Virus record (IMG/VR): IMGVR_UViG_3300021963_000032
Length of the DNA stretch: 64,000 nt
Reading direction: 5' to 3' (one strand)
Source: a virus
Taxonomy: Duplodnaviria; Heunggongvirae; Uroviricota; Caudoviricetes
Position 1 is the first letter of the stretch, and every line of letters starts with the position of its first letter. The notes below the pieces were generated by a model. The model was not told the origin of the DNA, searched no databases, and saw nothing but the letters and a program-made list of their open reading frames with translations. Positions 14,547 to 40,693 of this stretch are shown here, piece after piece. Both the position numbers and the translations under genes were made by a program.

Positions 14547-14591
14547 AGAAAGAGCAAAGGAGTTCATTGACGTAGTGGTAAACAAACAAAC

Positions 14592-14679: not shown

Positions 14680-14699
14680 TAAAAAAGTTAACAAAAGTG

Positions 14700-14730
14700 T
14701 TGACTTATCGAAACAAAAGGAGTATATTTA
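14700..14730 (+). promoter_or_regulatory. Promoter variant (TTGAC...TATATTTA) with duplicated leader GTTCATTGACATAGTGGTAAACAAACAAAC
   Basis: Near-duplicate of the 14510-14591 promoter-leader unit, placed upstream of the second tRNA sub-cluster. Confidence 0.5.
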
Positions 14731-14765
14731 TAAAAGTTCATTGACATAGTGGTAAACAAACAAAC

Positions 14766-14847
14766 GCGCGAGTGGTGGAATTGGTAGACACGCCGGATTT
14801 AGGATCCGGTGCCGAAGGGTTTGAGGGTTCGAGTCCCTCCTTGCGTA
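14766..14847 (+). tRNA. tRNA-Leu(TAG), type II
   Basis: Anticodon stem CCGGA/TCCGG, loop TTTAGGA, long variable arm, T-arm GAGGGTTCGAGTCCCTC. Confidence 0.65.
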
Positions 14848-14943
14848 CAAAAAGATCAACTAGTCACTGTAATCAATCAGTGGGCGTCAGTAAGTATTCT
14901 GAGCGACGTTTAAATCCTGACAGCAATGTTGATTTTTTATTTT

Positions 14944-15017
14944 GCAGGCATAGCTCAATTGGCTAGAGCACTAGCCTTCCAAGCTGGGGGTTGTGGGTTC
15001 GAGTCCCACTGCCTGCT
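14944..15017 (+). tRNA. tRNA-Gly(TCC), with 3' CCA encoded
   Basis: Acceptor GCAGGCA/TGCCTGC, anticodon loop CTTCCAA, T-arm GTGGGTTCGAGTCCCAC followed by TCCA. Confidence 0.7.
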
Positions 15018-15022
15018 CCAAT

Positions 15023-15096
15023 GGGGGATTAGCTCAGCTGGCTAGAGCACTGCACTTGCACTGCAGGGGTCAACGGTTCGAATCCGTTATCCTCCA
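15023..15096 (+). tRNA. tRNA-Ala(TGC)
   Basis: Anticodon stem CTGCA/TGCAG, loop CTTGCAC, T-arm AACGGTTCGAATCCGTT. Confidence 0.7.
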
Positions 15097-15101
15097 CAAT
15101 T

Positions 15102-15173
15102 GGTCCATTGGTGTAGTGGCTAACATACCACCCTGTCACGGTGGTGCCGCGAGTTCGATTCTCGCATGGACCG
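15102..15173 (+). tRNA. tRNA-Asp(GTC)
   Basis: Acceptor GGTCCAT/ATGGACC, anticodon loop CTGTCAC. Confidence 0.7.
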
Positions 15174-15183
15174 CAAACAATAC

Positions 15184-15255
15184 GCTGCCATCGTCTAACG
15201 GTTAGGACCTATGGTTTTCATCCATAAAATCGGAGTTCGATTCTCCGTGGCAGTA
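15184..15255 (+). tRNA. tRNA-Glu(TTC)
   Basis: TCGTCTAACGGTTAGGAC D-arm, anticodon stem TATGG/CCATA, loop TTTTCAT. Confidence 0.7.
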
Positions 15256-15350
15256 CAAAGATCGGAGTAATTAACCGATCCTAACAAGTAAGTATGCATA
15301 TAGCTTAAAGAGATTTGACGTCACTAATTTCTGCATGCTTCTCTTGATTA

Positions 15351-15426
15351 ACTACTTATGGTGTAAATTGGTTTGCACACGGGTCACACGGCCCGAGGGT
15401 TATAGGTTCGAGTCCTATGGGTAGTT
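15351..15426 (+). tRNA. tRNA-like with atypical anticodon loop, identity unresolved
   Basis: Acceptor ACTACTT/GGGTAGT and T-arm ATAGGTTCGAGTCCTAT are canonical. The anticodon stem CGGG/CCCG encloses a 6- or 8-nt loop (T)CACACG(G). Confidence 0.35.
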
Positions 15427-15432
15427 CAACAT

Positions 15433-15505
15433 AGCGGGGTGGAGAAGATGGTATTCTCGGCGGGCTCATAACCCGAGGACGCTGGTTCGAGTCCGGCCCC
15501 CGCTA
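15433..15505 (+). tRNA. tRNA-Met/Ile2 family (CAT), copy 2
   Basis: Acceptor AGCGGGG/CCCCGCT, D-stem GAGA/TCTC, anticodon loop CTCATAA. Confidence 0.6.
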
Positions 15506-15601
15506 CAAATACGTAAACCTAAGTACCCATACCGCTCACGGTGGGCTAAGTAAGATACAATTTCGTACTGCGGGAAGTAGAATGCTTAGGAGCGTGTTTA
15601 C

Positions 15602-15684
15602 GGCTAGGAGTGTAAAAGGCGTCGGTGCTGATTCCATCTGTTGAAGATGGTTGCTCATTGTAGGTTCGAATCCTATCCTAGCTG
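15602..15684 (+). tRNA. Putative type II tRNA-like element, anticodon unresolved
   Basis: Acceptor GGCTAGG/CCTAGCT and T-arm GTAGGTTCGAATCCTAT. The internal hairpin CCATCtgttgaaGATGG could be the anticodon arm (TTG) or the variable arm. Confidence 0.3.
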
Positions 15685-15689
15685 CAGAG

Positions 15690-15763
15690 GGTCCTTTAGC
15701 TCAGTTGGTTAGAGCAGCTCGCTCATAACGAGAAGGTCCCAGGTTCGAATCCTGGATGGACCA
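15690..15763 (+). tRNA. tRNA-Met/Ile2 family (CAT), copy 3
   Basis: GCTCAGTTGGTTAGAGC D-arm, anticodon loop CTCATAA, T-arm CCAGGTTCGAATCCTGG. Confidence 0.6.
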
Positions 15764-15772
15764 CACAAAAAG

Positions 15773-15803
15773 TTGCAAATAAGAAAAGAAAGTTGTATAT
15801 TAA
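15773..15803 (+). promoter_or_regulatory. Promoter motif (TTGCAAAT...TGTATATTAAA)
   Basis: Same TTGCA -33 and TAnnTTTA -7 architecture as the other promoter instances. Confidence 0.45.
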
Positions 15804-15819
15804 AAGAAAAGAAACAGTT

Positions 15820-16740
15820 ATGAAGAATCATTCACTATCACCAAAAGGTTTATCGCTATCTCAAGCGCAATCAGTATCCAATCTTTGTAATCAAAGAGCA
15901 AAGGATATCCAGGCCAATATTTCAGTAATCAACAATGCACAGAAGGTTATTACCATTGACGGTAAAGACTACGTTAAGACTGTAGGTAATGCAATCCCTT
16001 ACGAGATCGTGGATCTTTTGAAAGAGAAAGCACGCTTACATGCTGCCCAAGCTTTCTTGATGGAGAACATCAAAGCTAAAGACGAAGCGCTGAGTGAGAT
16101 CAAGAATAGACGATTCGTTTCTGGTATCGAAGGTCCTGAGAGCCCACGTTATATGGAACCAGAATACATCGATCCAGTTGATGAGCAGTGGGGTTGGGAA
16201 CAGCTATCTACTAAAGAGTACTGTGAGTTCTTAGAAGCTGAAGCATTTGCATCACACGTTGGACAATTCATCCACGGAGGTGGTAAGTTGGATAAACTTC
16301 GTAAGGAGTTACCTACAATGGAATTGTTGGAGTGGGCTGAGATTGAGGATGGCAAGAAGACGCCAGTAGTAGTTAATGCACACCACACGTCAGAGTATTT
16401 AGCTGACTTGCATGAGGATCTTTCTGGACTTCATAGAGATTACGAGCAAAAAGTAAACTACTATAAAGCTAAGGTGAAGAACCTAGTGACTTTGGAGAAT
16501 GCTCGCATTGCTCGAGTTAATGCAGACAACCAGTCAGCAGCTAACGAAATCAACGACAAGTTGATTACAGAGTACAAAACTGCAAGACAAGCTTGGTTAG
16601 CCAAAGTTTCGAAAGCAACAAATGAGTTTGAAGAAGCTCGTCAGAAAGAGACCGCTCGAATCGCAGCTCTACGAATTGAGGTATCACCGATATTCAAAGA
16701 AGTGATTGATGGCTTTCTTTCTAAGTTAGGTAAAGAGTAA
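15820..16740 (+). CDS. hypothetical protein
   Basis: ORF. The start is taken downstream of the promoter motif. The product is a coiled-coil-rich acidic protein. Confidence 0.45.
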   Translation: MKNHSLSPKGLSLSQAQSVSNLCNQRAKDIQANISVINNAQKVITIDGKDYVKTVGNAIPYEIVDLLKEKARLHAAQAFLMENIKAKDEALSEIKNRRFVSGIEGPESPRYMEPEYIDPVDEQWGWEQLSTKEYCEFLEAEAFASHVGQFIHGGGKLDKLRKELPTMELLEWAEIEDGKKTPVVVNAHHTSEYLADLHEDLSGLHRDYEQKVNYYKAKVKNLVTLENARIARVNADNQSAANEINDKLITEYKTARQAWLAKVSKATNEFEEARQKETARIAALRIEVSPIFKEVIDGFLSKLGKE

Positions 16741-17075
16741 GGTGGTAGGGAGCTAGACATGAGTCGATGCTCCCTTACTTTTGTGTTGGGATAGTTAGGT
16801 TTTCTTATACAAGATATGATATATATTCATTATACTAAGAAACGCTGGATGTAGGGCACTGCCCTTATTTAGCCCTGAAACTATCGCTTCCCTGCAAACT
16901 CCAAAAGCTGAGATAGAACTCAACGTTAGACAAGTTACTCCTCTCCGGTCGAGATAATTGGCTAGCAAACCGAGACTTAGTTTTTGATTTTGCCTTTGTA
17001 GCAGGGAAGGTCTTTGATTTGGAATTTAGCATTGGTTTAGTCTATATCCCTAATTATCTCAACAACTTATTTTAT

Positions 17076-17179
17076 AGTCAGGTGGCGGAATGGTAGACGC
17101 TCAGGGTGATAATTAAGTAGTTCGGATTATAAATACAACCTCGATGGACTACATGTAGGTTCGAATCCTGCCCTGACTA
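17076..17179 (+). tRNA. Non-canonical 104-nt tRNA-like element, Leu-like D-arm, possibly intron- or insert-containing
   Basis: The acceptor AGTCAGG/CCTGACT is identical to the element at 14592. D-arm GCGGAATGGTAGACGC, T-arm GTAGGTTCGAATCCTGC, with about 30 extra nt internally. Confidence 0.35.
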
Positions 17180-17224
17180 CAAGCGTAGAAGTTCATTGAC
17201 ATAAAATAATAGGAGAACCACAAT

Positions 17225-17620
17225 ATGGAAACAACAATGTTTGCTTTAGGGATTCTTGCGATGATAATGGTGATGTTAATTACTGTTGTTGTTGTTGGTA
17301 TTGTTAAGGTATTTAAGATGAGTAAACAAATCAAAGATTTCTACACATACCTGCATGAGTCAGAAAGATCTACAAGTGATTACATTCGTAGAGTAGAGCA
17401 AAATACTGATATGCAGTTTCGGGATGTTAATAGAGATATCAACATGATCGAACATACGATGATGAATCGAATGGATCACGGATTGATAGCAGTAAATGAT
17501 CAAATTACAGATTCAGTTACTCAAAGTAATTCGTATACAGACAAACGAATCGATAAGCTAATTGATACCTACTTTGAGGTACAAGAAGCAAAACAATCAA
17601 AAAAACTAATTAAAGGATAA
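17225..17620 (+). CDS. hypothetical membrane protein
   Basis: N-terminal TM helix (LGILAMIMVMLITVVVVGIV). Confidence 0.4.
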   Translation: METTMFALGILAMIMVMLITVVVVGIVKVFKMSKQIKDFYTYLHESERSTSDYIRRVEQNTDMQFRDVNRDINMIEHTMMNRMDHGLIAVNDQITDSVTQSNSYTDKRIDKLIDTYFEVQEAKQSKKLIKG

Positions 17621-17664
17621 ATCCGTCAAAGCTTCTACGCTTTCTATTTATATAAAACAATCAT

Positions 17665-19650
17665 ATGAAACATATTAGTACAATTCTATTTGTATTGATC
17701 TTTGCTACAAGCTTTGGTCAGTACTGTCCTGCATTAGGACCAGATCAACTCCTTCCATGTGGGTTAGGAACAACGACGTTAACAGCTGACCTATCTCAGT
17801 GTGGACCTGGAGGACCTTCTCCAAAACAAACCACGGATTACCTAGTTAGTAGTATTCCCTATGTTGCTCAAGCTAACACGGGTACTAACATATTCATGAC
17901 AGATGATTCTCAGCAAGGACCTTTTAATATAGGATTCAACTTTTGCTTCTTCGGATCAACCTATACTCAATTCTATATAGGATCGAATGGTTGGATATCT
18001 TTCTCAGGAGGGCAGCCAACTACATTTACCTCTTCACCAATTCCAACAGCAAACCCTCTAGTACCTAAGAATTGTGTAATGGGGCCATGGCAGGATTGGC
18101 ATCCAGGACTTGGTGGTCAGATTAAATATCAAACAACTGGAGTAGCTCCATGTAGAAAATTAACAGTAAGTTGGATAGGTGTACCTATGTTTAGTTGTAC
18201 GGGAAACCAAGGAACATTCCACATTGTGGTCTATGAGTCAACTAACGCAATCGAAACCTATATTCAAGATAAACCTGCATGTACACAGTGGCAAGGTGGT
18301 ACCGCAGTAGAAGGTATACACAATACAGCTGGTTCAATAGGGATAGCCGTTCCTGGAAGAAACTCCACAGCATGGACTGCAAACAATGATGCTTGGAGGT
18401 GGACTCCAAATGGTCCTCTAGTTAATCCAGTACTGACTTGGTACCAGGTAGGTAATCCAGTAGCTATTGGAACTGGACCATCTATAACAGTCACACCACC
18501 CGCTGCAGGTGCTCAGTATACTTGTCGTTTTGTTTATCCTATTTGTAATGTAGGATGGGCTACTTGTAATGCTTTTGCAGGATTGGGACCAGATACAGTA
18601 TTCGTACAACCTGGACCTCCGTATCCAGTAGTAAGTCCAATTGCAGGTTCAGATACTCTATGTTCGTATTCAACAAATGAGCTATATACAATTATCAATC
18701 AACCTGGAGTAAATTACTTATGGGACGCTGTTGGGACTATTACGTCAGGTCAAGGTGCAGATAGCATTACTATTGATTGGAATGCAATTGCTCCAGGATT
18801 CATTCCTGGTGGGGTTATGGTTACTCCGGAAGCAAATGGTTGTGTAGGTGCACCTGCTTCTTTTGATTTATTTATACTAGATGTTGTTCCAATTATTCAA
18901 CCGATAGGACCATTCTGCGAATATGACGATAGCACTCAGCTAGTTGGTAATCCATTAGGTGGAGCATTCTCAGGAGTAGGAGTTTCTAATACTTACTTCA
19001 ATCCACAAAACGCAGCTGGCGTTGATACAATTACTTATACATACACTCTCAGTGGCTGTACGTTTGATACAACAACTCTTGTTACCGTGTACCCAAAACC
19101 TACCTTAGATTCTATTACTCCTCACAATACATTCTTTGAGATATGTGAGCTAGAAGTGGCCACAATAACATGGGATGCAGATGGTTATCCTGCAAATGGA
19201 TATACGGAGTGGACTTGGTTAGGACAGAATACTCAGCAACCATTATTATCTGTAACAGTACCTTGGGATTCAGCAGGAACATATAATGTGTCTGCAGTCT
19301 ATTGGGCTAATGGTTGTGTGTCGGATCCACAAACTGCTTACATCACAGTAATTCAGTGTCCGGAAACTTTATTCTATATTCCTAATTCATTTACACCAGA
19401 TGGTAACGAATGGAATCAAGTATGGCAACCTATAATTACTAGTGGGATAGATCCATACAACTATCAGGTGTTGGTGTACAATCGTTGGGGAGAAGTTGTA
19501 TTTGAGTCTCACGACATTGAAGTTGGATGGGATGGAACTTATAAAGGTAGGCCATGCATGGAAGGTGTATACTTTTACATAGTAAGCTGTACCGATACTA
19601 AAACAGCTAAGAAGTTTAACCTACAAGGACATATTTCTTTATTAAAATAA
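17665..19650 (+). CDS. Secreted Cys-rich protein with T9SS type-B C-terminal sorting domain (gliding-motility-associated CTD)
   Basis: Signal peptide MKHISTILFVLIFATSFGQ. The C-terminus FYIPNSFTPDGNEWNQVW...YNRWGEVVFES...GWDGTYKG matches the TIGR04131-like CTD motif. Confidence 0.55.
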   Translation: MKHISTILFVLIFATSFGQYCPALGPDQLLPCGLGTTTLTADLSQCGPGGPSPKQTTDYLVSSIPYVAQANTGTNIFMTDDSQQGPFNIGFNFCFFGSTYTQFYIGSNGWISFSGGQPTTFTSSPIPTANPLVPKNCVMGPWQDWHPGLGGQIKYQTTGVAPCRKLTVSWIGVPMFSCTGNQGTFHIVVYESTNAIETYIQDKPACTQWQGGTAVEGIHNTAGSIGIAVPGRNSTAWTANNDAWRWTPNGPLVNPVLTWYQVGNPVAIGTGPSITVTPPAAGAQYTCRFVYPICNVGWATCNAFAGLGPDTVFVQPGPPYPVVSPIAGSDTLCSYSTNELYTIINQPGVNYLWDAVGTITSGQGADSITIDWNAIAPGFIPGGVMVTPEANGCVGAPASFDLFILDVVPIIQPIGPFCEYDDSTQLVGNPLGGAFSGVGVSNTYFNPQNAAGVDTITYTYTLSGCTFDTTTLVTVYPKPTLDSITPHNTFFEICELEVATITWDADGYPANGYTEWTWLGQNTQQPLLSVTVPWDSAGTYNVSAVYWANGCVSDPQTAYITVIQCPETLFYIPNSFTPDGNEWNQVWQPIITSGIDPYNYQVLVYNRWGEVVFESHDIEVGWDGTYKGRPCMEGVYFYIVSCTDTKTAKKFNLQGHISLLK

Positions 19651-21220: not shown

Positions 21221-22456
21221 ATGATAAAACTAAAGAACATACTAAACGAAGTACTCGAAGAAGGAGTATATGATCCAGGAATCCTAAAATGCGTATTCCT
21301 AGCAGGTGGGCCTGGATCAGGTAAAACAACAGCAGCAAATCAATTACTTGGAGTAAGCTTTGATAGCTTTTCTGAGGCTGGACTAAAACCAGTTAATAGT
21401 GACAAATTCTTTGAGTTCATCTTAAAGTCTCGTAACCTACCAACTGACCTAGCATCTCTTTCTCCTGAGGACTTTGAGAAGATTACTGTAGGTGCAGACT
21501 CTCCTAGAGAGAAAGCAAAGGGAATGTTGAAGACATCTTATACATACTACGTTGGTGGTCGTTTAGGTCTTATCATTGATGGTACTGGAGATGATCCAAA
21601 CAAAACAAGACAACAAGCAGAGGAATTGCAGAAAGTGTTTGGCTACGATGTAGCTATGGTGTTTGTTAACACATCACTAGAAAAAGCGATTGATAGAAAT
21701 AACAATCGAGAAAGAAAGCTACCTGCTGATCTTGTAACTAAGATCTGGAATGAAGCACAGAAAGCAAAGGAAGTACATAAGCGCTTCTTTGGTAACAACT
21801 TCTACGAAGTACTTAACGAGAAGGATAGTGCACCAGGACAGCCATTAGATATCAACCCACAAGTACAAAAGTTAGTACGTTCGTTCATACAAAAGCCAGT
21901 TCAGAACCCAGTAGGTAAAGAGTGGATCAAGAAAGCACTTGCTGCAAAGTCTTCTATGAGTGAAGCAGAAAATCCTCAGTATGAGATATTCTGTGATATG
22001 GATGGAGTGCTTTGTGATTTTGTTAAGCAGTGGAAGAAATACTTCAAAGGAGAAGCTCCTGACGATATGAGACATCGAATTGGTAAACCAGAGTTTGATG
22101 AGTACCTAGATTCTATGGACAGAAAGTTTTGGAATACTATGGAGTGGATGCCAGGAATGCAAAGAGTGTGGAATGTTATTAGCAACTATGGTGCAGGTGC
22201 TAAAATACTTAGTGCCCCTGCCGAGAACCCAGACTCACCTGCAGGTAAGTTGGATTGGGTAAAGAAGAATCTTTCAAATCCAGAAGTGATCTTCCGCAAG
22301 TCAACACAAAAGCAAGAGTTCTCAGGACCTAACAAGATCCTTATTGATGACCTCAAAAGAAATATTGATCAGTGGAGAGCTAGAGGAGGAATTGGAATAC
22401 ACCACATCAGCGTGGAGAAGACACTAAAAGAACTAAGTGATTTAGGAATAAAATAA
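21221..22456 (+). CDS. Fusion of a P-loop (d)NMP kinase-like domain and a HAD 5'(3')-deoxyribonucleotidase-like domain
   Basis: N-terminal FLAGGPGSGKTT Walker A. C-terminal FCDMDGVLCDF HAD motif I (compare DMDGVLADF of NT5C-type enzymes). Confidence 0.5.
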   Translation: MIKLKNILNEVLEEGVYDPGILKCVFLAGGPGSGKTTAANQLLGVSFDSFSEAGLKPVNSDKFFEFILKSRNLPTDLASLSPEDFEKITVGADSPREKAKGMLKTSYTYYVGGRLGLIIDGTGDDPNKTRQQAEELQKVFGYDVAMVFVNTSLEKAIDRNNNRERKLPADLVTKIWNEAQKAKEVHKRFFGNNFYEVLNEKDSAPGQPLDINPQVQKLVRSFIQKPVQNPVGKEWIKKALAAKSSMSEAENPQYEIFCDMDGVLCDFVKQWKKYFKGEAPDDMRHRIGKPEFDEYLDSMDRKFWNTMEWMPGMQRVWNVISNYGAGAKILSAPAENPDSPAGKLDWVKKNLSNPEVIFRKSTQKQEFSGPNKILIDDLKRNIDQWRARGGIGIHHISVEKTLKELSDLGIK

Positions 22457-22483: not shown

Positions 22484-22604
22484 AATTAGGTATATTAATA
22501 GAAATAAGTATGGGACCATTAGAAGGACAATTACATTTATTAGCAATCACCGTTACGGTAGTATGTATAGTGGTTCATTTAATTTTTGCAAACAAAAACA
22601 AGGA

Positions 22605-23003
22605 ATGAAGATAGGAGTTATAGCAGGAAACTTTGACGTTATCCACCCAGGTTATATCTATATGTTTGATGAGTGTAAGCAGAACTGCGACCACCTCGTA
22701 GTACTATTGCATACGGATCCTACCATCGAACGTCCCGAAAAGCTCAAGCCAATTTTAACAGTTGAAGAGAGACGTAAAATCTTATTTGCTTTAGATATTC
22801 CTACAGTCATATCTTATGATACGGAAAAGGAGTTGTATTGGATGCTCCACGATGGAGACTATGATGTGCGTTTTCTAGGGGACGATTACATGGGTAAGTC
22901 CTTTACTGGAGATGACCTTAGTATTCCAATTCACTATCTCAACAGAGATCACGGTTGGTCAACAACAAAGTACAAACGATTAATAGCAGATTCACTATGT
23001 TAA
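22605..23003 (+). CDS. Cytidylyltransferase-like nucleotidyltransferase (NMNAT / glycerol-3-P cytidylyltransferase family)
   Basis: GVIAGNFDVIHPGYIYMF matches the (T/H)xGH nucleotidyltransferase signature. Confidence 0.45.
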   Translation: MKIGVIAGNFDVIHPGYIYMFDECKQNCDHLVVLLHTDPTIERPEKLKPILTVEERRKILFALDIPTVISYDTEKELYWMLHDGDYDVRFLGDDYMGKSFTGDDLSIPIHYLNRDHGWSTTKYKRLIADSLC

Positions 23004-25112: not shown

Positions 25113-25826
25113 ATGATAGTTACTTTAATTTCAGACACGCACACAAAGCATAACCAAATCACAAAGGATCTTCCTGGTGGTGATTTATTAATCCATGCCG
25201 GTGACTTTATGTCCTCAGGTTACAGCCCTTATGAAGCAGAAGAGTTCTTTAAGTGGTTTGATAAAATTAACAACTATGACACAAAAGTGTTCATTGCAGG
25301 TAACCACGATCGATTAATGGAGAGTGATCCTGAATGGGCTAGTGGTATTCTAACCGGATACAAGACTATAGAATACCTACAAGACGATTGGTTGGGGATA
25401 TATAACGATGGTCCTAATGGTGATCTACCGGAAGAGAATGTACGCATCTACGGTTCACCATGGCAACCTGAGTTCTACGATTGGGCTTTTAATTTACCAA
25501 GACATAGTGAAGAGATGAAAGCACGTTGGGATGCAATTCCTGATTTTACAGATATCCTAATAACACACGGACCTCCATTCGGTCACTTAGATATTCCAGG
25601 TGGAGGAAGACCTATACGAGTTGGATGTGAAATGCTACGTGCACGAGTTGATGTAGTTAGACCAAAGATTCATGTGTTTGGACATATCCATGGAAGTCAC
25701 GGTTACTACTACGATGGGCACACTCACTTCTTCAATGCTTCTGCACTGAATGAGAGGTATGAGTATCGCAATCTACCATTCACATTTGATTGGAATCATT
25801 TAACTAATGAAATTAAATGGTTGTAG
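25113..25826 (+). CDS. Calcineurin-like metallophosphoesterase
   Basis: DTH...GDF...GNHD...HGP...GHIHG motif series. Confidence 0.55.
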   Translation: MIVTLISDTHTKHNQITKDLPGGDLLIHAGDFMSSGYSPYEAEEFFKWFDKINNYDTKVFIAGNHDRLMESDPEWASGILTGYKTIEYLQDDWLGIYNDGPNGDLPEENVRIYGSPWQPEFYDWAFNLPRHSEEMKARWDAIPDFTDILITHGPPFGHLDIPGGGRPIRVGCEMLRARVDVVRPKIHVFGHIHGSHGYYYDGHTHFFNASALNERYEYRNLPFTFDWNHLTNEIKWL

Positions 25827-26868: not shown

Positions 26869-26880
26869 TTTAACAAGCTG

Positions 26881-26912
26881 TTGCAAAATCGTTTCATTGG
26901 TAGTATCTTTAC
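26881..26912 (+). promoter_or_regulatory. Conserved phage promoter (TTGCAAAATCG...TAGTATCTTTAC)
   Basis: Motif ends 4 nt upstream of the ATG at 26916. Confidence 0.55.
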
Positions 26913-26915
26913 TGT

Positions 26916-27365
26916 ATGAAAAAAGACACAGTTATATTCGATTTAGATGGCACATTGGCTTTGATTGATGAAAGAAGAGCTTTGGCCGCAAAACCAAACG
27001 GAAAGATCAATTGGAAAATATTCTTTGCTCCAGAGAACATTGCATTGGATAAACCAAATACACCGGTTATGTCGGCATTTCACGGATTTAAGCGCCAAGG
27101 GTTCGATGTAGTTATTTTCTCAGGAAGAGATGAAATAAGTCGCGCTGAAACCATAGCATGGCTAGACGGCTACGATATTGAACCAGATGCCTTGAAGATG
27201 AGACCACAAGGATCTTTCACACCGGATGATATCTTGAAGAAACAGTGGTTAGATGAGTTGGGAGCAGACAAAGTGTTCTGTGTATTCGATGACAGAGATA
27301 AAGTAGTACAAATGTGGAGAGACAATGGATTAACTTGTTTCCAAGTAGCTCCGGGTAATTTTTAA
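26916..27365 (+). CDS. HAD-family phosphatase (polynucleotide 3'-phosphatase-like)
   Basis: VIFDLDGTLA HAD motif I and FSGRDE motif II region, adjacent to the kinase, CCA enzyme and RNA ligase. Confidence 0.5.
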   Translation: MKKDTVIFDLDGTLALIDERRALAAKPNGKINWKIFFAPENIALDKPNTPVMSAFHGFKRQGFDVVIFSGRDEISRAETIAWLDGYDIEPDALKMRPQGSFTPDDILKKQWLDELGADKVFCVFDDRDKVVQMWRDNGLTCFQVAPGNF

Positions 27366-27368
27366 GTT

Positions 27369-27755
27369 ATGAAAGAGTTATTCTTATTAAGAGGTTTGCC
27401 TGGAAGTGGTAAGTCTACGTTAGCTAAAACATTAGGAGGACTTCACTACGAAGCTGATATGTACTTTACAAATGCTGCAGGAGACTATAAGTTTGATCCC
27501 ACTGGTTTACGTAGCGCACATGAGTGGTGCCGAGATTTAGTCTGGGTAGCTATGACTAAGTCTGAACCACTTGTAGTAGTATCAAACACATTCACTCAGG
27601 AGTGGGAGATGGAAGCTTACTACAAATTAGCTGAGAAGTATGGATATCGAGTATCGTCATTGATAGTTGAGAACCGTCACGGAGGAGTAAATGAGCATGG
27701 AGTACCAGCTGACAAGTTGGAACAAATGAAGAATAGATTCGAAGTAAAACTATAA
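27369..27755 (+). CDS. P-loop polynucleotide 5'-kinase-like protein
   Basis: LLRGLPGSGKSTLAK resembles the T4 Pnk-type kinase Walker A. Confidence 0.5.
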   Translation: MKELFLLRGLPGSGKSTLAKTLGGLHYEADMYFTNAAGDYKFDPTGLRSAHEWCRDLVWVAMTKSEPLVVVSNTFTQEWEMEAYYKLAEKYGYRVSSLIVENRHGGVNEHGVPADKLEQMKNRFEVKL

Positions 27756-27772
27756 AAAGTTTTGCACAACTG

Positions 27773-27810
27773 TTGCATCAACGGAAAATAGGTACGACCT
27801 TTAGATATAA
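27773..27810 (+). promoter_or_regulatory. Conserved phage promoter (TTGCA-N22-CTTTAGATATAA)
   Basis: Family motif upstream of the ATG at 27828. Confidence 0.5.
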
Positions 27811-27827
27811 TTAAAAACACACAAGTT

Positions 27828-28577
27828 ATGCCAAAGATTTACAAAGTAGGAGGTTGCGTTAGGGATACGTTTCTAGGTATTGATTCGAAGGATATTGATT
27901 TTACCTTTGTGTTAGATAACATTGACAGATCCGTAGAGGAAGGGTTTCAGATAATGACTGAGTACCTAGAACATAAGGGATTCACAATCTTCTTATCGAC
28001 TCCACAGATGTTTACAATTAGAGCTAAGTTCCCAAGTACAGACGGACCTTATGCTAGATACTGCGGTATGGTTGCAGACTTTGTGTTAGCGAGAAAGGAA
28101 GTTGGATATGTTCCAGGAACGAGACAACCGATTCTTGAGTTAGGTACGTTAGAAGATGACCTTATTAGAAGAGACTTCACTCTGAATGCACTAGCTGTAG
28201 ATGAGGACGGAAATCTAATTGATCTTTTCAATGGCGTTAACGATCTAAAGGTAGGCTTACTCAGAACTCCATTAGATCCAAAAGTCACAATGATGGATGA
28301 TCCATTGAGGTTTTTAAGAGCTTTGAGGTTTAGTATCACTAAAGACTTTACGATTGCTCTTGAGATATTCGATGCTATACAAAACCAACCTGAGATTCTA
28401 GAGAAGCTAGAAAAAGTAGTCTCTGCAGAGAGAATTAGAGAAGAGGTTTTCAAAATGATGAATGCTGACACTGTAAAGACTTTGGAGTTGTTTAGAATCG
28501 TAGAAGAGATGGTTCCAGGATTCACTAAGCTAGTATTCAGCAAAGGTCTATGGTTGAAACCAACATTTGAACAATAA
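27828..28577 (+). CDS. cca: Class II nucleotidyltransferase: CCA-adding enzyme / poly(A) polymerase head domain
   Basis: VGGCVRDTFLGIDSKDIDF and RRDFTLNAL signatures. Confidence 0.65.
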   Translation: MPKIYKVGGCVRDTFLGIDSKDIDFTFVLDNIDRSVEEGFQIMTEYLEHKGFTIFLSTPQMFTIRAKFPSTDGPYARYCGMVADFVLARKEVGYVPGTRQPILELGTLEDDLIRRDFTLNALAVDEDGNLIDLFNGVNDLKVGLLRTPLDPKVTMMDDPLRFLRALRFSITKDFTIALEIFDAIQNQPEILEKLEKVVSAERIREEVFKMMNADTVKTLELFRIVEEMVPGFTKLVFSKGLWLKPTFEQ

Positions 28578-28595
28578 ATAAATACACAATAAGAA

Positions 28596-29735
28596 ATGGA
28601 AAATAACAACAGCGTATGTTACGTAGGACTCGTAACAGAAGTAAAAGCCATCGAAGGAGCTGACAACATTGAGTTAGCAGTAGTTGGTGGATGGAATGCA
28701 ATCACTAAGAAAGGTGAATATGCAGTAGGTGATAAAGTTGTAGTAGCTACAACAGATGCAGTCATTCCAGTTGGGTTATCTGACTTAATGCAAGTGACTA
28801 ACTACTTGCGTAAAGGACAACGAGTGAGAACCGTTAAGTTGCGAGGAGTATACTCTGAGTGCTTATTAATCCCATTTAAGTATCTAGCTCCTAAGTCATT
28901 GGAAAAGAATGTTAAGGATGGTGATGACATGATGGAGATCTTAGGAGTAACCAAGTACGAGCCACCGGTAAGACAAGTTCAGTTATCATCTGGAAGAAAG
29001 GTCAAATACAAAGACAATCCAAACTTCCATGTCTACTACAAGTTCCCTAACTTGAAGAATGTAGCTGGGATGTTTACTGAGGAAGATGTAGTTGAGATCA
29101 CTAGAAAGATTCATGGTACCAATGCTCGCTATGGTATTGTCAAAAAGACTAGCTTGTCTTTCATGGACAAAGTTAAAAAGTTCTTCCGCTTAGGTGGAGA
29201 GTGGATTGATTATGAGTATGTGTACGGATCTCACAACGTTGAGAAAGGTTCTGACTCACAAGGATTCTACTCTACAGATGTTTGGAGAACAATTGCTGAC
29301 AAGTACCAAATCAAAGAAAAGCTTTGGACGATTGTTAAGGAAGAGTACACTCCAGAACAGTTGGGAGCAGGGATTGTAATGTATGGTGAAATCTACGGAG
29401 CAGGTATTCAGAAGAATTACGAGTACGGATTAACTGATATGGAGTTTGTCGGGTTCGACTTCTCTGAGGATGGAACATACTTTGCACCACTCACATCACA
29501 ATATGCTATCAAAAACGTGATGGGATTACCATATGTAGAGCAATTGCATTTCGGACCATGGACACAAGAAGTACAAGACAAGTATGTGTTCAATAACTTC
29601 ATCGAAGGTACTAAGGTGCCACACGAGGGAATTGTAATCAAGTACCACACTGGTCAGCGAAACAAAGTAGCTAAAGTAATCAACCCAGACTACTTGATCT
29701 ACGGAGAGAAACACAACGTAGGAGACTCACACTAA
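28596..29735 (+). CDS. ATP-dependent RNA ligase (Rnl2/Rnl5-like) with N-terminal OB-like domain
   Basis: Motif I KIHGTN, motif IV EGIVIK, motif V KVAKVINP. N-terminal VGLVTEVKAIEGADNIELAVVGGWNAI OB-like segment. Confidence 0.6.
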   Translation: MENNNSVCYVGLVTEVKAIEGADNIELAVVGGWNAITKKGEYAVGDKVVVATTDAVIPVGLSDLMQVTNYLRKGQRVRTVKLRGVYSECLLIPFKYLAPKSLEKNVKDGDDMMEILGVTKYEPPVRQVQLSSGRKVKYKDNPNFHVYYKFPNLKNVAGMFTEEDVVEITRKIHGTNARYGIVKKTSLSFMDKVKKFFRLGGEWIDYEYVYGSHNVEKGSDSQGFYSTDVWRTIADKYQIKEKLWTIVKEEYTPEQLGAGIVMYGEIYGAGIQKNYEYGLTDMEFVGFDFSEDGTYFAPLTSQYAIKNVMGLPYVEQLHFGPWTQEVQDKYVFNNFIEGTKVPHEGIVIKYHTGQRNKVAKVINPDYLIYGEKHNVGDSH

Positions 29736-30043
29736 TGGTAGCACGAACGAAGATAGGAAGCTTTCGAGCAACTTGGGTGTTGAGGCATCGATGGGAAGAA
29801 GGATCTGAAAGCATTTTAAAAAACTATGAGGCTAATAATATTAGACGTACATGGGAGCTGGGTATTTGGGCAAAACGATCTAAAGCAGTTGGTCGCAGAA
29901 AAGCTGGTAAAGATAAAGCTGATACCATTATTAAGACGTTCGGATCCGATAATCACGTAAACTGCTACATGATAGGATTAAATTTAATTATTGCTAAAGT
30001 TTGGGTTGATTTCAAATTCAGCCCAACACTTGGCACAAAATAA
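29735..30043 (+). CDS. hypothetical protein
   Basis: ORF with ATGA coupling. Confidence 0.3.
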   Translation: MVARTKIGSFRATWVLRHRWEEGSESILKNYEANNIRRTWELGIWAKRSKAVGRRKAGKDKADTIIKTFGSDNHVNCYMIGLNLIIAKVWVDFKFSPTLGTK

Positions 30044-32532: not shown

Positions 32533-32568
32533 TTGCATAAACGAATAGGAAGGAGTATCTTTAGGTAT
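32533..32568 (+). promoter_or_regulatory. Conserved phage promoter (TTGCA-N22-CTTTAGGTATAA)
   Basis: Family motif upstream of the ATG at 32584. Confidence 0.55.
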
Positions 32569-32583
32569 AAACAAAAGCAAGTT

Positions 32584-33441
32584 ATGATAGTATTAGATTT
32601 AACAAACCCAGTAAACTCCTCAGTGAAGTATCAGGTTAATAAGTTTCCTGACGGACAGCAGTCCATTACTTTACTTAATAGTCATCATTTTTGGACATTG
32701 AAGAATGAGACAATAAAGATCCATAGTCACCTTAATTCGTTCGCAGACTTGGAGTTAATTATTTGTGCTAAGAAGGTTTTAGATAACCTAGGAACTCCTC
32801 AAGTAATACTACACGTTCCATACTTCCTAGGAGCTAGATCGGATCGTAGGTTTGAAGAGGGAACAGTTCACTACCTTAAAGAGGTAATCTGTCCTATTAT
32901 CAACTCACTGAAGTTTGATGCAGTGGTAGTATTAGATCCTCACTCAGATGTACTTGAAGCTTGTCTCGATAACATGGTGAAGATCGACAACCACTTAATT
33001 GTGAAGTCTGCATTGACTGCAATTGACAATAAGAATGATGCACGAGATCGAATCTGCTTAGTGTCACCTGACGCTGGTGCTTACAAGAAGATCTTTGATG
33101 TAGCTAAGAAGTTCGACATTGATAAAGTGATTACAGCTACAAAGGTCCGAGACTTGAAGACCGGTAAGATCTTACATACAGAAGTTCCTACACCAGACAT
33201 GCACAACGACATTAAATATGTGATTGTCGATGACATCTGTGATGGTGGTAGAACTTTCACTGAGATTGCAAAGGCTATCAAAGCTGTTAGACCAACTGCT
33301 AAAATCTATCTAGTAGTAACTCACGGAATCTTCTCAGGTGGTGAAAAGCCTTTGAAAGAGTACTTTGAGCATGTATACACTACTAATAGTGTGAAGGAAG
33401 GTGAGTCAGATTTTGTTACACGATACAACGTATTCAAATGA
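32584..33441 (+). CDS. prs: Ribose-phosphate pyrophosphokinase homolog (PRPP synthetase-like, candidate ADP-ribose pyrophosphokinase)
   Basis: VIVDDICDGGRTFTEIAK matches the PRPP/PRT-binding motif DDxxDTGxT. The N-terminal Prs-like domain is present. The start is set after the promoter. Confidence 0.6.
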   Translation: MIVLDLTNPVNSSVKYQVNKFPDGQQSITLLNSHHFWTLKNETIKIHSHLNSFADLELIICAKKVLDNLGTPQVILHVPYFLGARSDRRFEEGTVHYLKEVICPIINSLKFDAVVVLDPHSDVLEACLDNMVKIDNHLIVKSALTAIDNKNDARDRICLVSPDAGAYKKIFDVAKKFDIDKVITATKVRDLKTGKILHTEVPTPDMHNDIKYVIVDDICDGGRTFTEIAKAIKAVRPTAKIYLVVTHGIFSGGEKPLKEYFEHVYTTNSVKEGESDFVTRYNVFK

Positions 33442-33878
33442 TAGTGTACCACAAAGACTTCTTCATCAACAGATTAGTGAAGGAGTGGCTCAACCACGAG
33501 AAGTTAGTCATCGCATGCGACTTAGATGACACAATCATTCCATACAACCTAGAGCTAACACAAAGCTGTGCAGATGTTGTTGAGTTGATACTAGATTGCC
33601 AAAAGGAAGGAATTGTATTCATTATCAATACAGCACGAGAACGATCCAAGTTGATTGATAGTGTAGGCCAAGTAGAGGATTTAGGAATCAAAGTACACTC
33701 AGTTAACGAAATGCCTCCCTATTGGACACTACCAATTGGAGTATCAGGTAAAGTGTATGCTAACATATTCTTAGACGATCGAGGTGGATTGGAATGTACC
33801 AAGCACCAATTGCGTAAAGCATTGGAGATAGTAAAACAGATAAGAGAACAACAAAAAATACAGAATGAAAGTAATTAA
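33438..33878 (+). CDS. HAD-like hydrolase
   Basis: VIACDLDDTIIP matches the DxDxT motif. Confidence 0.4.
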   Translation: MIVYHKDFFINRLVKEWLNHEKLVIACDLDDTIIPYNLELTQSCADVVELILDCQKEGIVFIINTARERSKLIDSVGQVEDLGIKVHSVNEMPPYWTLPIGVSGKVYANIFLDDRGGLECTKHQLRKALEIVKQIREQQKIQNESN

Positions 33879-34341
33879 ACCACCACATGCAATAACTGAA
33901 AGAACGTACGGACATCCAACTATCTTCCTAGCTGGAAGTATTGAGATGGGTAAAGCAGAGGATTGGCAATCACAGATGGAATGGCTATTTCGTGATAAAG
34001 ATGTAACCATATTTAATCCTCGCAGAGAGGAATGGGATTCGTCTTGGACTCAGGACATTGAGAATCCACAATTCTATCAGCAAGTGAATTGGGAGTTGAA
34101 TGCATTAGAGAAGAGTGATCTAATCTTTATGTACTTTGCACCTGGAACGCAATCACCAATATCACTACTAGAGCTTGGACTATTTGCACACACCGGTAAG
34201 TTGGTTGTATGCTGTCCGGAAGGTTTTTGGAGAAAGGGTAATGTTGATATCGTTTGTGATAGATATGGCATTCCAGTATTCTCAAATGTAGTAGCAGCTC
34301 AGGGAGAATTATACAGCAGATGGTTAGAATTATTTAAGTAA
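33865..34341 (+). CDS. Nucleoside 2-deoxyribosyltransferase-like (Rcl/YtoQ family) protein
   Basis: IFLAGSIEMG...FNPRREEWDS...LIFMYF pattern of the deoxyribosyltransferase fold. Confidence 0.45.
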   Translation: MKVIKPPHAITERTYGHPTIFLAGSIEMGKAEDWQSQMEWLFRDKDVTIFNPRREEWDSSWTQDIENPQFYQQVNWELNALEKSDLIFMYFAPGTQSPISLLELGLFAHTGKLVVCCPEGFWRKGNVDIVCDRYGIPVFSNVVAAQGELYSRWLELFK

Positions 34342-34398: not shown

Positions 34399-35910
34399 AT
34401 GAATCCATTATTTTTAACAGACGGGTACAAGACGGGACACCACAAGCAGTATCCAGAGGGAACCACATTAGTGTATTCCAACTTCACACCACGTAGCAAC
34501 AAGTATGCTCCGAAGGGTTGTGATAAAGTAGTATCATTTGGTCAGCAATTGATCATGAAACAGATCCACGAAGCCTTTGAGAAAGACTTCTTTCATCAAC
34601 CAAAGGAGCACGTGTGTGCTGAGATCAAACGTGAGTTGTCAATGTACTTAGGTACCGACTATGACGTATCTCACTTCGAGGCGTTATGGGATCTACAGTA
34701 TCTTCCAATCAAAGTGAAAGCTATTAAAGAAGGTACATTGGTTCCAATTAAAGTTCCAGTGTTAACAATCGTCAACACACATCCAGACTTCTATTGGATC
34801 ACTAACTACTTGGAAACAATCATCTCCAATATGTTATGGAAGCCAATGACCTCTGCAACAATTGCACATCAGTACAAGAAAGTACTAGAGCATTGGGCTG
34901 AGAAGACTAACCGTGATGCGATGGAGTTTGTTAATTGGCAGGGACATGACTTCTCTATGAGAGGTATGGATTCTACTGAAGCGGTTATCTCTTCGGGATT
35001 AGGTCACTTAACTTCATTCCTAGGATCTGACTCACTTCCAGCTATCTACGGAGCTAGAAAGTATTACGGTGAGACAGAGTTTGTTGCAGGATCAGTAAAT
35101 GCTACAGAGCACTCAGTAATGTGTGCAGGTACAAAGGATGACGAGGTTGGAACATTCCGTCGCTTGTTGACCGAGACTTATCCATCAGGAATCTTATCAG
35201 TAGTATCTGACACTTGGGATTTGTGGAAAGTATGTACCGAACACGTAGTTACATTAAAAGATGAGATTATGGCTCGTGACGGTAAGTTAGTTATCCGTCC
35301 TGACTCAGGTGACCCAGTAGATATTCTTTGTGGTTTAAATACTAGAAGTGAAGAATTTAAGAAAAATTGGTTGGACACTGCTACTCGAAATAATGGTGAA
35401 TATGAAGGAGTTATTGAAATACTTTGGAATGTATTCGGAGGAACTATCAATGAACAAGGTTACAAAGTACTTGACCCACACATCGGAGCAATCTACGGAG
35501 ACTCAATCACAATCGACAGAGCAAATGAAATCTGTGCTAGATTAGAAGCAAAAGGGTTTGCATCTACAAACGTAGTGCTAGGTATCGGATCATTCACATA
35601 CCAATACAACACACGTGATACATTTGGGTTTGCAATGAAAGCAACCTATGTTGAGGTGAATGGTGAAGGTAGAGAGATATTCAAAGATCCAATCACAGAT
35701 GATGGAACTAAGAAGTCTGCAACCGGATTGCTATGTGTTCAACCACTGAGTGACGGAAGCATCTACTTAATGGACAAAGTTAGTTGGGATAGTGAAGATA
35801 AGGGACTACTCGCTAGCATCTATGTTGATGGTAAGTTCCACAATGTTACTACTCTGTCAGATGTTCGTGCTAACTTGAGAACTGCTAACCTATTAGAAGA
35901 GCTAGTGTAA
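34399..35910 (+). CDS. nadV: Nicotinamide phosphoribosyltransferase homolog (NAMPT/NadV-like, or NARP1 Namat-like)
   Basis: N-terminal LFLTDGYKTGHHKQYP matches the NAMPT TDSYKxxHxxQYP signature. The 503-aa length fits the family. Confidence 0.65.
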   Translation: MNPLFLTDGYKTGHHKQYPEGTTLVYSNFTPRSNKYAPKGCDKVVSFGQQLIMKQIHEAFEKDFFHQPKEHVCAEIKRELSMYLGTDYDVSHFEALWDLQYLPIKVKAIKEGTLVPIKVPVLTIVNTHPDFYWITNYLETIISNMLWKPMTSATIAHQYKKVLEHWAEKTNRDAMEFVNWQGHDFSMRGMDSTEAVISSGLGHLTSFLGSDSLPAIYGARKYYGETEFVAGSVNATEHSVMCAGTKDDEVGTFRRLLTETYPSGILSVVSDTWDLWKVCTEHVVTLKDEIMARDGKLVIRPDSGDPVDILCGLNTRSEEFKKNWLDTATRNNGEYEGVIEILWNVFGGTINEQGYKVLDPHIGAIYGDSITIDRANEICARLEAKGFASTNVVLGIGSFTYQYNTRDTFGFAMKATYVEVNGEGREIFKDPITDDGTKKSATGLLCVQPLSDGSIYLMDKVSWDSEDKGLLASIYVDGKFHNVTTLSDVRANLRTANLLEELV

Positions 35911-39604: not shown

Positions 39605-40693
39605 ATGAAGTTACAAACACTATTTAAGCGAGCTACCAACGGAAAGGTGTTGGAGCATACATTCGAGATTGAAGGTAATGGTTACCGTACGATTTCAGGA
39701 TACGTTGATGGAGTGAAGACCACAACAGAATGGACCTACTGCCAAGGGAAGAATATTGGTAGAAGTAATGAAACCACACCGGAAGGTCAAGCACTAGCAG
39801 AAGCTAAGGCTGAGTGGAAGAAACGTACAGAGCGCAACTACTTTGCTAAGGTTGCTGACATAGACAATGGTACAATGTTCAAACCCATGCTCGCTAACAA
39901 GTGGGAAGACTATGCTGACAAGATTCAGTATCCTATCTACTCTCAACCTAAGTTGGATGGTATTAGATGTATCGTAAGAGAGGATGGTATGTGGACACGA
40001 ACCGGTAAACCAATCGATTCAGCACCACACATCTTTGAAGCACTTGCACCACTATTTGCAGAGAATCCAGATCTTATCTTCGACGGGGAATTATATGCTG
40101 ACAAGTATGCTAATGACTTCAACGCTATCGTATCGCTAGTGAAGAAGACCAAGCCAACAGCTAAGGACCTAGAAGACAGTGCAAAGGTTATTAAGTATCA
40201 CATCTACGACTTACCAAGCTGTGAGGAAGTATTCACTAAGAGATACAAAACACTACAGAGCATAGAGTTGCCTGAGTGCTGCGTGAAAGTAGTAACAGAT
40301 CAAATAGACAACTTGAATGATGTTGCAGGATACTACGGAGACTATATGTCAGCCGGGTATGAAGGTCAGATGCTACGAGTAGATGGAATGTACGAGAACA
40401 AACGCTCTAAGTCATTACTCAAGCATAAGTCATTCATCGATGAGGAATATACAATCGTAGGGTATGAAGAGGGTAACGGAAACCTAGCTGGAATGATCGG
40501 AGCATTAGTATTCCAAACAGCACAAGGTGATAAGTTCACAGCATCAGTGAATGGTGGGTGGGAACATCTCAAACAACTATGGAGTGAAAGAGATACTCTA
40601 GTCGGACAAGAAGCTACTATCAAGTACTTCAACATCACACCGGATGGTAAACCAAGATTCCCTAAAGTAACAGCAATCAGAAACTATGAGTAA
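39605..40693 (+). CDS. lig: ATP-dependent DNA ligase
   Basis: Motif I KLDGIR, motif IV EGQMLR, motif V LLKHK, in canonical order. Confidence 0.65.
   Translation: MKLQTLFKRATNGKVLEHTFEIEGNGYRTISGYVDGVKTTTEWTYCQGKNIGRSNETTPEGQALAEAKAEWKKRTERNYFAKVADIDNGTMFKPMLANKWEDYADKIQYPIYSQPKLDGIRCIVREDGMWTRTGKPIDSAPHIFEALAPLFAENPDLIFDGELYADKYANDFNAIVSLVKKTKPTAKDLEDSAKVIKYHIYDLPSCEEVFTKRYKTLQSIELPECCVKVVTDQIDNLNDVAGYYGDYMSAGYEGQMLRVDGMYENKRSKSLLKHKSFIDEEYTIVGYEEGNGNLAGMIGALVFQTAQGDKFTASVNGGWEHLKQLWSERDTLVGQEATIKYFNITPDGKPRFPKVTAIRNYE

Follow-up and report, generated by a model that had tools for sequence, protein, structure and literature searches.

Phage T4 heals and seals broken transfer RNA (tRNA) with two proteins, the polynucleotide kinase-phosphatase Pnkp and the RNA ligase Rnl1, and in this way counters the anticodon nuclease PrrC. 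Here we analyse a cluster of four adjacent plus-strand open reading frames (ORFs) at positions 26916-29735 of the Caudoviricetes record IMGVR_UViG_3300021963_000032 (a stretch of 64,000 nucleotides, hereafter the window), which encode a predicted HAD phosphatase, a P-loop kinase, a class II tRNA nucleotidyltransferase (hereafter CCA enzyme) and an RNA ligase of the Rnl5 type. The predicted chemistries - a DxDxT HAD 3'-phosphatase, a P-loop 5'-kinase and an ATP-dependent sealing enzyme - are those of the T4 pair. Unlike in T4, the phosphatase and kinase are separate and in reversed order, the kinase comes from a different, stand-alone family and has no counterpart of T4 Arg38, the ligase is Rnl5 in place of Rnl1, the cluster includes a CCA enzyme, and no cognate host nuclease is known.

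Similar sets of genes have been described before. In a survey of jumbo phages (Iyer et al. 2021), RNA ligases, polynucleotide kinases, PKN-HAD proteins, Swiss-army-knife HAD proteins, cREC and a CCA enzyme accompany phage tRNAs as a repair kit, the Pnkp-type HAD usually being fused to a kinase (PMC7824862). The window shares these component families and the tRNA arrays, and its relatives carry HAD_SAK_2 and cREC domains as well; it differs from the surveyed neighbourhoods in that its HAD stands alone and its four genes are contiguous in a Bacteroidota-type phage of about 170 kilobases (kb), not a jumbo phage. As in the Pnkp1-Rnl-Hen1 system of Capnocytophaga gingivalis (4xrp), the ligase is separate from the healing enzymes, and the phosphatase domain of Pnkp1 is the best solved match of the window HAD. 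Unlike the window proteins, however, Pnkp1 is a kinase-phosphatase fusion, and the solved matches of the window ligase are all to NgrRnl, with no 4xrp chain among them. No Pfam match to the 2'-O-methyltransferase Hen1 was found among the 56 window ORFs scanned, a set that did not cover every small ORF. As for the Rnl5 ligases themselves, sealing of 3'-OH/5'-PO4 nicks requires RNA on the 3'-OH strand only, and Deinococcus that has lost DraRnl is more sensitive to ionising radiation (PMC4408790, PMC5397189).

The cluster is a real but fairly ordinary version of known phage RNA (tRNA) repair kits, and it leaves the established picture of phage RNA repair unchanged. What is distinctive is the combination, in one contiguous run, of a stand-alone Pnkp-type HAD, a small non-Pnkp kinase, a minimal CCA enzyme and an Rnl5 ligase. 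As set out below, comparison with related loci indicates that this combination is one permutation of a variable RNA-repair island.

Family assignment of the four proteins

A preliminary description of this DNA, made from the sequence alone, had proposed these four genes and their families. The positions and strand of all four ORFs are confirmed, every motif it quoted is present (VIFDLDGTLA, GLPGSGKST, GGCVRD..DID, RRDFTLNAL, KIHGTN, EGIVIK and KVAKV), and the family assignments are correct, including that of the ligase to the Rnl5 type with an N-terminal OB domain: profile searches detect homology for all four proteins (PF25109, 1e-29; PF13671, 1.3e-12; PF01743, 5e-20; PF09414, 6.6e-11).

The HAD protein matches the Pnkp-specific family HAD_PNKP (PF25109) end to end, as against only 7e-4 for the generic HAD family of Pfam. 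Among solved structures it is closest to Capnocytophaga Pnkp1 (4xrp, 8.4e-17), with T4 Pnkp (1ltq) at 1.4e-8, and it aligns to residues 157-301 of T4 Pnkp such that both proteins end at the same C-terminus. The active-site motifs of T4-type Pnkp phosphatases (DxDxT, Ser/Arg, Asp, Lys, Asp-Asp) are all present: D9/D11, S69-G-R71, D104/D105, K108 and D125/D126 correspond to T4 D165/D167, S211/R213, D254, K258 and D277/D278, and K30 occupies the place of T4 R176. The T4 sequence used for this mapping agrees in its C-terminal half with the structure-database alignment.

In the ligase, an OB domain (PF21189, residues 12-93, 2.6e-13) precedes the RNA_ligase domain (PF09414, residues 166-362), with no C-terminal appendage, which is the architecture of the Rnl5 enzymes DraRnl and NgrRnl. 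The N-terminal domain matches NgrRnl (5cot, 2.5e-16), to which the protein is about 22% identical, though it is some 40 residues longer (379 versus about 340 amino acids). The match to NCBIfam TIGR02306, the DRB0094 family, runs end to end (1.1e-30; residues 14-367 against 9-339 of 341), and the ligase is a divergent relative of that family. In a structural model of the whole protein, the 13 best matches in the PDB are all NgrRnl at full length (Foldseek, E about 1e-17), and the N-terminal OB domain resembles the tRNA-binding OB folds of Trbp111 and PheRS-B2. Motifs I, III, IV and V (K171-I-H-G, G264-E265-I-Y-G, E344-G-I-V-I-K349 and K357-V-A-K360) are invariant in 21 homologues, GEIYG aligning with GEIIG of NgrRnl, and K171 of KIHGTN is equivalent to the adenylylated Lys170 of NgrRnl (PMC4408790).

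The kinase matches AAA_33 (PF13671). Its predicted structure is closest to the T4 polynucleotide kinase fold, the nearest folds being polynucleotide and tRNA kinases, and it is also similar to phage proteins annotated as polynucleotide kinases. The P-loop (K15/S16) and Asp30, equivalent to T4 Asp35, are conserved. Relatives are numerous: at least 8000 were scored in the database, each of the 120 matches listed is 127-137 amino acids long, and 629 phage records are matched, often with the gene annotated beside an RNA ligase. A literature search found no biochemical study of this family of 128-residue kinases.

The preliminary description regarded the phosphatase and kinase as a Pnkp split into two ORFs. 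This view does not hold. T4-type Pnkp combines a kinase, at the N-terminus, and a HAD, at the C-terminus, in a single protein chain, whereas in the window two ORFs stand in the opposite order. They share a reading frame, parted by TAA plus one codon (GTT), and the junction (..APGNF*VMKEL..) is identical in two related loci, L002 (HAD 85% identical to that of the window) and L029 (78%). The kinase is far closer to phrog_2071 (2.6e-37) than to the Pnkp family phrog_505 (only 7e-7), and in relatives it usually lies by the ligase without a HAD. Because of the reversed order, the retained TAA junction and the separate kinase family, we do not regard the pair as a split Pnkp; the kinase belongs instead to a separate, very common stand-alone family outside the Pnkp kinase lineage. 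A tblastn search (E 1e-3) with the window kinase gave no match to the bifunctional Pnkp of a distant locus described below (L090), and the residues common to the two in a pairwise alignment lie mainly near the P-loop. We also considered fusion of HAD and kinase by readthrough or recoding, and rejected it, given that the TAA is kept in these relatives, that ARAGORN finds no suppressor tRNA and that the HAD has a natural Pnkp C-terminus.

The CCA enzyme matches PolyA_pol (PF01743), the RNA-binding neck PF12627 (6.6e-4) and the phage family phrog_24229, 'tRNA nucleotidyltransferase', whose members have about 245 residues (3.9e-60 over 5-239 of 245). Like class II CCA-adding enzymes it comprises a catalytic head and a neck in which motifs A to E are present, the (E/D)DxxR nucleotide template among them; GGCVRD..DID (A), RRDFTLNAL (B), DDPLRFLRALRF (D) and SAERIREE (E) can be read in the translation. 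Unlike them it is only 249 residues long and has neither body nor tail: solved CCA-adding enzymes are matched with E values down to 7e-23, but over residues 6-217 only, and all full-length NCBIfam CCA models score far below their cutoffs (e.g. 109 versus 290). Deletion of a loop is the mark of CC-adding enzymes; the 88 residues between motifs A and B give an indirect hint that no such deletion has occurred here. A search of the literature for biochemical work on this family of short phage CCA enzymes gave nothing.

CCA-less tRNAs and the role of the CCA enzyme

ARAGORN confirms both the tRNA array some 11 kb upstream of the cluster and the transfer-messenger RNA (tmRNA) gene noted earlier (Table 1). 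All 23 tRNA genes of the array that ARAGORN detects carry C at position 74, in most cases with AA after it, and 22 of them lack an encoded CCA. The same is seen more widely: of the 563 tRNA genes in the window and its related loci, 552 have C74, the commonest tail being CAA, and only 37 encode CCA.

The preliminary description suggested that the CCA enzyme might rebuild 3' ends removed by CCA-targeting host toxins. This over-reads the gene. The phage tRNAs and tmRNA need CCA completion anyway, so the enzyme needs no host-toxin rationale; maturation of the phage's own CCA-less tRNAs suffices. At the same time most relatives with CCA-less tRNAs evidently use the host enzyme, and the CCA gene is therefore accessory. 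We had also looked for a correlation between the CCA gene and CCA-less tRNA genes, and set it aside as uninformative, the tRNAs of relatives being CCA-less with or without a CCA gene in the stretch examined.

Several observations concern the tRNA genes themselves. In some 37 related loci with tRNA arrays (e.g. L020, L025 and L059), nearly all tRNA genes likewise have a single conserved C after the discriminator. The tRNA-Ser(GCT) of the window was missed by ARAGORN; it scores 40 bits as tRNA-Sec-like in Rfam and aligns with tRNA-Ser(GCT) of related loci. A tRNA-like element of 104 nucleotides at 17076-17179 (Rfam tRNA, 36.3 bits), likewise missed by the ARAGORN scan, ends in an ACAA tail like the array tRNAs. 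Loci L007, L083 and L084 have retained its acceptor, D and T arms, with changes in the acceptor that compensate one another; its anticodon and variable region differ in sequence and length among loci, and it may be an interrupted or decoy tRNA. An ARAGORN model with a 27-nucleotide intron and anticodon ACA was judged unreliable. As to tRNA ends made by hepatitis delta virus-like or other self-cleaving ribozymes, no such family reached its gathering score in the window, nor E<=0.5 within 11700-17700.

A variable island around a kinase-ligase core

Relatives of the ligase, 64-88% identical, were taken from 80 viral contigs and compared as 20-kb stretches. They were found through protein searches only: among 50,697 phage records, megablast gave zero matches to the region. 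Identical kinase and ligase proteins were found on a public contig of 170,568 bp.

We counted genes within 3 kb of the ligase in the 68 loci with at least 3 kb upstream of it. The kinase is present in 53, and in 33 it is the only tabulated gene. The 'Swiss Army Knife RNA repair' HAD (HAD_SAK_2, PF18143) and the cyclic-phosphate-processing domain cREC (PF20274) each occur in nine, and HAD_PNKP and the CCA gene in two each. Of 74 loci that extend 1.5 kb or more beyond the ligase on its upstream side, 46 have a kinase that starts no more than 1.2 kb upstream of it. In all, HAD_SAK_2 (1.5e-23) is found in 17 relative loci (e.g. L081, 7675-8223) and cREC (4.8e-22) in 22 (e.g. L029, 8558-8965), in both cases at or near the kinase-ligase locus; the window has neither. 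The arrangements differ from locus to locus: HAD-kinase-ligase in L002, kinase-CCA-ligase in L020, HAD_PNKP-kinase-cREC-x-CCA-ligase in L029 and HAD_SAK_2-kinase-...-CCA-x-ligase in L081. The gains of HAD_PNKP and CCA genes thus vary at one site, L002 having the HAD only, L020 and L081 the CCA gene only, and L029 and the window both. Because these neighbours vary at a constant kinase-ligase site, the locus appears to be a variable RNA-repair island in which end-healing genes are exchanged around a core of kinase and ligase.

A search anchored on the CCA enzyme added 41 loci (L090-L130), mostly from one sample and therefore counted as one lineage. Their proteins are distant from those of the window (45-50% identity for the CCA proteins, about 25% for the ligases, 27-38% for the HAD domains). 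In all 41 the CCA gene is preceded by a gene for a 459-residue Rnl5-like ligase, no more than 2.4 kb away in 40 of them, and followed 0.7-2.3 kb downstream by one for a bifunctional Pnkp in T4 domain order. In L090 the cassette spans 7707-11673 and consists of the ligase, three small acidic ORFs, a 259-residue CCA enzyme and a 306-residue Pnkp whose start overlaps the CCA stop; it is found in L091-L130 also, and the adjacency persists over 57-100% ligase identity. No tRNA gene lies within 10 kb in the eight of these loci that were scanned. This cassette provides the best evidence that a CCA enzyme and repair genes may be linked for a reason. The grouping of the genes is in any case not due to chance, as it recurs in the independent related contigs L029, L002 and L020 and in this distant lineage.

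Probable repair of tRNA and alternative explanations

We consider it probable, on balance, that the cluster is an RNA-repair island in which a core of kinase-like protein and Rnl5 ligase has gained a Pnkp-type HAD phosphatase and a short CCA enzyme. The earlier proposal that phosphatase, kinase and ligase form a heal-and-seal set is supported by the end-healing domains, HAD_SAK_2 and cREC, that relatives carry at the same locus. The family and active-site matches of all four proteins, the linkage kept in relatives, the separate DNA ligase of the phage and the promoter-like motif shared by both gene pairs also speak for this reading. The most probable substrate is tRNA, and three observations point to it: in 21 of 56 loci the 10 kb upstream of the ligase contain an array of five or more tRNA genes, the N-terminal domain of the ligase is Trbp111-like, and the phage tRNAs are CCA-less.

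A number of findings weigh against this reading. Characterised Rnl5 enzymes seal duplex nicks, their physiological substrates are stated to be unknown and none has been shown to act on tRNA (PMC4408790, PMC5397189). The window ligase, at 106.7 bits, falls short of the curated TIGR02306 cutoff of 151.15, and its structural model is of moderate confidence (predicted local distance difference test, pLDDT, 69), with low-confidence segments at 123-158 and 214-226 that make up part of its extra length over NgrRnl. Matches of the kinase to solved polynucleotide kinases are marginal at the sequence level (E 0.01-0.07; T4 Pnk 0.011, CthPnkp 0.07), and in place of T4 Arg38 it has Phe33, which is invariant in its family. 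The CCA enzyme stops 32 residues past the neck, without the parts that bind tRNA in canonical enzymes, and close homologues in Cellulophaga phage phi17:2 and Microbacterium phage Zooman have no repair genes adjacent. Finally, the 33 relatives noted above have kinase and ligase without a recognisable phosphatase nearby, and in 29 of 56 loci the 10 kb upstream of the ligase are free of tRNA genes.

If the set does act on tRNA, the enzymes could be a dedicated counter-defence kit, all four forming one pathway against host tRNA nucleases or toxins, with the CCA enzyme recruited to rebuild acceptor ends. T4 Pnkp/Rnl1 versus PrrC is the textbook precedent, a role of this kind has been proposed for the CCA enzymes of jumbo phages (PMC7824862), two lineages far apart from each other both show linkage of ligase, CCA enzyme and Pnkp, and nearby NAD-salvage genes, in a block that is also found in Pseudomonas phage Pyxpy02, are of a type that may act against host immunity. 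We nevertheless regard this only as a tentative possibility, since the CCA-less tRNA genes offer a sufficient rationale outside defence, the CCA gene is near the ligase in only the two loci counted above, being absent from most kinase-ligase relatives, and stands apart from repair genes in other phages, and no host nuclease is known. Much the same doubt attaches to the idea that two functions share one insertion-prone locus, the CCA enzyme maturing tRNAs and tmRNA while phosphatase, kinase and ligase repair RNA independently. The tRNA and tmRNA genes of the window and the low frequency of encoded CCA across related loci fit it well, as do the separate promoter-like motif of the CCA gene (see below), the many unrelated insertions that the locus takes up and the occurrence of the CCA gene without repair genes, not only in the Cellulophaga and Microbacterium phages but also in loci L082-L086, L088 and L089. 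It does not account for relatives with equally CCA-less tRNAs that mostly show no CCA gene, the host enzyme evidently being enough for them, nor for the adjacency of ligase, CCA enzyme and Pnkp in 40 of the 41 distant loci, where the eight scanned have no tRNA gene close by.

That the ligase, kinase and phosphatase serve repair or replication of DNA or RNA-DNA hybrids, acting on RNA-OH/pDNA junctions or on DNA ends with 3'-phosphate and 5'-OH, seems unlikely to us. The limited RNA requirement of Rnl5 and the radiation sensitivity that follows loss of DraRnl (PMC4408790, PMC5397189) are in keeping with such a role, T4-type and mammalian PNKP are textbook examples of enzymes that act on DNA ends too, and the window encodes both a UvdE endonuclease and a DNA ligase. 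Yet a tRNA-specific enzyme sits between kinase and ligase, the cREC of relatives processes cyclic phosphate and a 2',3'-cyclic phosphate is an end that only RNA has, the ligase carries a Trbp111-like tRNA-binding fold, and many relatives have the locus near tRNA arrays. Less likely again is that the enzymes serve normal biogenesis of the phage's own tRNAs and not the repair of damage. Cleavage of pre-tRNA would then leave a 3' phosphate after C74, which the HAD would clear before the CCA enzyme adds C and A, and kinase and ligase would join up the parts of a tRNA-like RNA that is interrupted, for instance the element at 17076-17179; were this true, it would give Rnl5 ligases their first physiological substrate. 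Least credible of all is that HAD and kinase are small-molecule enzymes of the nucleotide and NAD genes around them. AAA_33 and HAD are broad superfamilies, and the cluster is indeed flanked by ThyA, an NT5C-kinase fusion and genes for phosphoribosyl pyrophosphate (PRPP) synthetase-like, NAMPT and deoxyribosyltransferase-like proteins; against this, the HAD matches the Pnkp-specific family end to end far better than the generic one, the kinase fold is nearest to polynucleotide and tRNA kinases, and the kinase gene lies in tight linkage with that of an RNA ligase.

Under the favoured reading, a repair island acting on tRNA, the steps can be sketched from the known chemistry of each enzyme family. 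An RNA, most likely a tRNA, would be cut by a metal-independent ribonuclease to leave a 2',3'-cyclic or 3'-phosphate and a 5'-OH. The HAD would remove the 3' or 2',3'-cyclic phosphate through an acyl-phosphate intermediate on Asp9, the kinase would phosphorylate the 5'-OH with its P-loop residues K15/S16 and Asp30 as general base, and the ligase, adenylylated at Lys171, would seal the resulting 3'-OH/5'-PO4 break, kept as a nick by the RNA's own helices. The CCA enzyme would routinely complete the 3' ends of phage tRNAs and tmRNA, and the same chemistry would restore trimmed CCA ends.

The wider value of the locus lies in the company that its ligase keeps. Both here and in more than 50 related contigs, Rnl5 is tied to a kinase-like gene, with interchangeable 3'-end-healing genes, sometimes a CCA enzyme, and often just downstream of a tRNA array. 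The locus also illustrates clearly the assembly of a repair kit from interchangeable parts. Rnl5 ligases are widespread, and the small, defined set of proteins makes it directly testable whether Rnl5 repairs tRNA. The 249-residue CCA enzyme, in turn, lends itself to testing which parts of a class II enzyme tRNA recognition can do without.

Putative expression units and genomic setting

The window contains a bipartite, promoter-like motif, in which CTGTTGCA is followed after about 18 nucleotides by a TATCTTTAGGTAT-like second box, (T)ATCTTTAGGTAT. CTGTTGCA occurs 15 times, always on the plus strand, versus 2.55 expected, and of these 15 at least 13 lie between genes and have the second box about 18 nucleotides downstream. 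The sites (e.g. 8810, 19661, 26878, 27770, 31254, 34343, 37126, 48648 and 51148) mostly lie 3-80 nucleotides before ORF starts, and at several of them the start codon directly follows the second box, which suggests leaderless or very-short-leader mRNAs. Since the motif precedes the HAD and CCA genes and no copy stands before the kinase or ligase, the cluster may consist of two co-regulated units, one of HAD and kinase and the other of CCA enzyme and ligase; no convincing terminator was found between them.

Table 1. Positions of the repair cluster and associated features in the window
Feature	Position	Strand	Remarks
HAD phosphatase, Pnkp-type, stand-alone	26916-27365	+	149 aa (amino acids)
P-loop kinase, stand-alone, predicted polynucleotide 5'-kinase	27369-27755	+	128 aa
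Class II tRNA nucleotidyltransferase, short, head and neck only	27828-28577	+	249 aa
Rnl5-type ATP-dependent RNA ligase, N-terminal OB and C-terminal nucleotidyltransferase domain	28596-29735	+	379 aa
ORF not assigned to the system	29735-30043	+	102 aa; ATG overlaps ligase stop (TAATG)
Promoter-like motif (CTGTTGCA, 18 nucleotides, TATCTTTACTGT)	26878-26915	+	ends directly at HAD start codon
Promoter-like motif, second copy	27770-27808	+	upstream of CCA gene
Phage tRNA array, likely substrates	12142-15764	+	23 ARAGORN tRNAs, plus tRNA-Ser(GCT) at 13298-13384
Phage tmRNA	62106-62486	+	no encoded CCA; ends ..TCCAC|tat

The 102-residue ORF downstream of the ligase has no match in Pfam or PHROG; it occupies the equivalent position in L002 and a different place in L029. 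A 661-residue protein at 17665-19650 carries a C-terminal CHU_C type IX secretion sorting domain, and no Shine-Dalgarno sequence can be read upstream of any of the four cluster genes. Because of these two features, which point to Bacteroidota, we infer a host in that phylum.

A separate ATP-dependent DNA ligase is encoded at 39605-40693, so the phage owns a DNA nick-sealing enzyme beside its RNA ligase. The UV-damage endonuclease UvdE is encoded at 8830-9771 (4.6e-64). A metallophosphoesterase at 25113-25826 is close to mammalian MPPED2 (3rl4, 8e-39) and is present in 24 of the 68 related ligase loci; MPPED2 is linked to cyclic nucleotide hydrolysis. We considered it as a healing enzyme like that of CthPnkp, and rejected it as being of the MPPED2 type, with only a faint match (4.4e-4) to phrog_8238 (kinase-phosphoesterase-ligase). 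The NT5C-kinase fusion, a protein of 411 residues encoded at 21221-22456, joins a P-loop kinase (AAA_33/Zeta_toxin-like) to an NT5C-type 5'-nucleotidase, and its kinase is a second one in the window, distinct from that of the cluster. The NAD-salvage and nucleotide set, at 22563-23003, 32533-33441, 33865-34341 and 34399-35910, with locus L136 listed alongside, comprises cytidylyltransferase-like (NMNAT-like), PRPP synthetase-like, nucleoside deoxyribosyltransferase-like and NAMPT genes. A similar block occurs in the cultured phage Pyxpy02, where a metallophosphoesterase, an RNA ligase, a homologue of the kinase, PRPP synthetase, NAMPT and a macro domain are found together.

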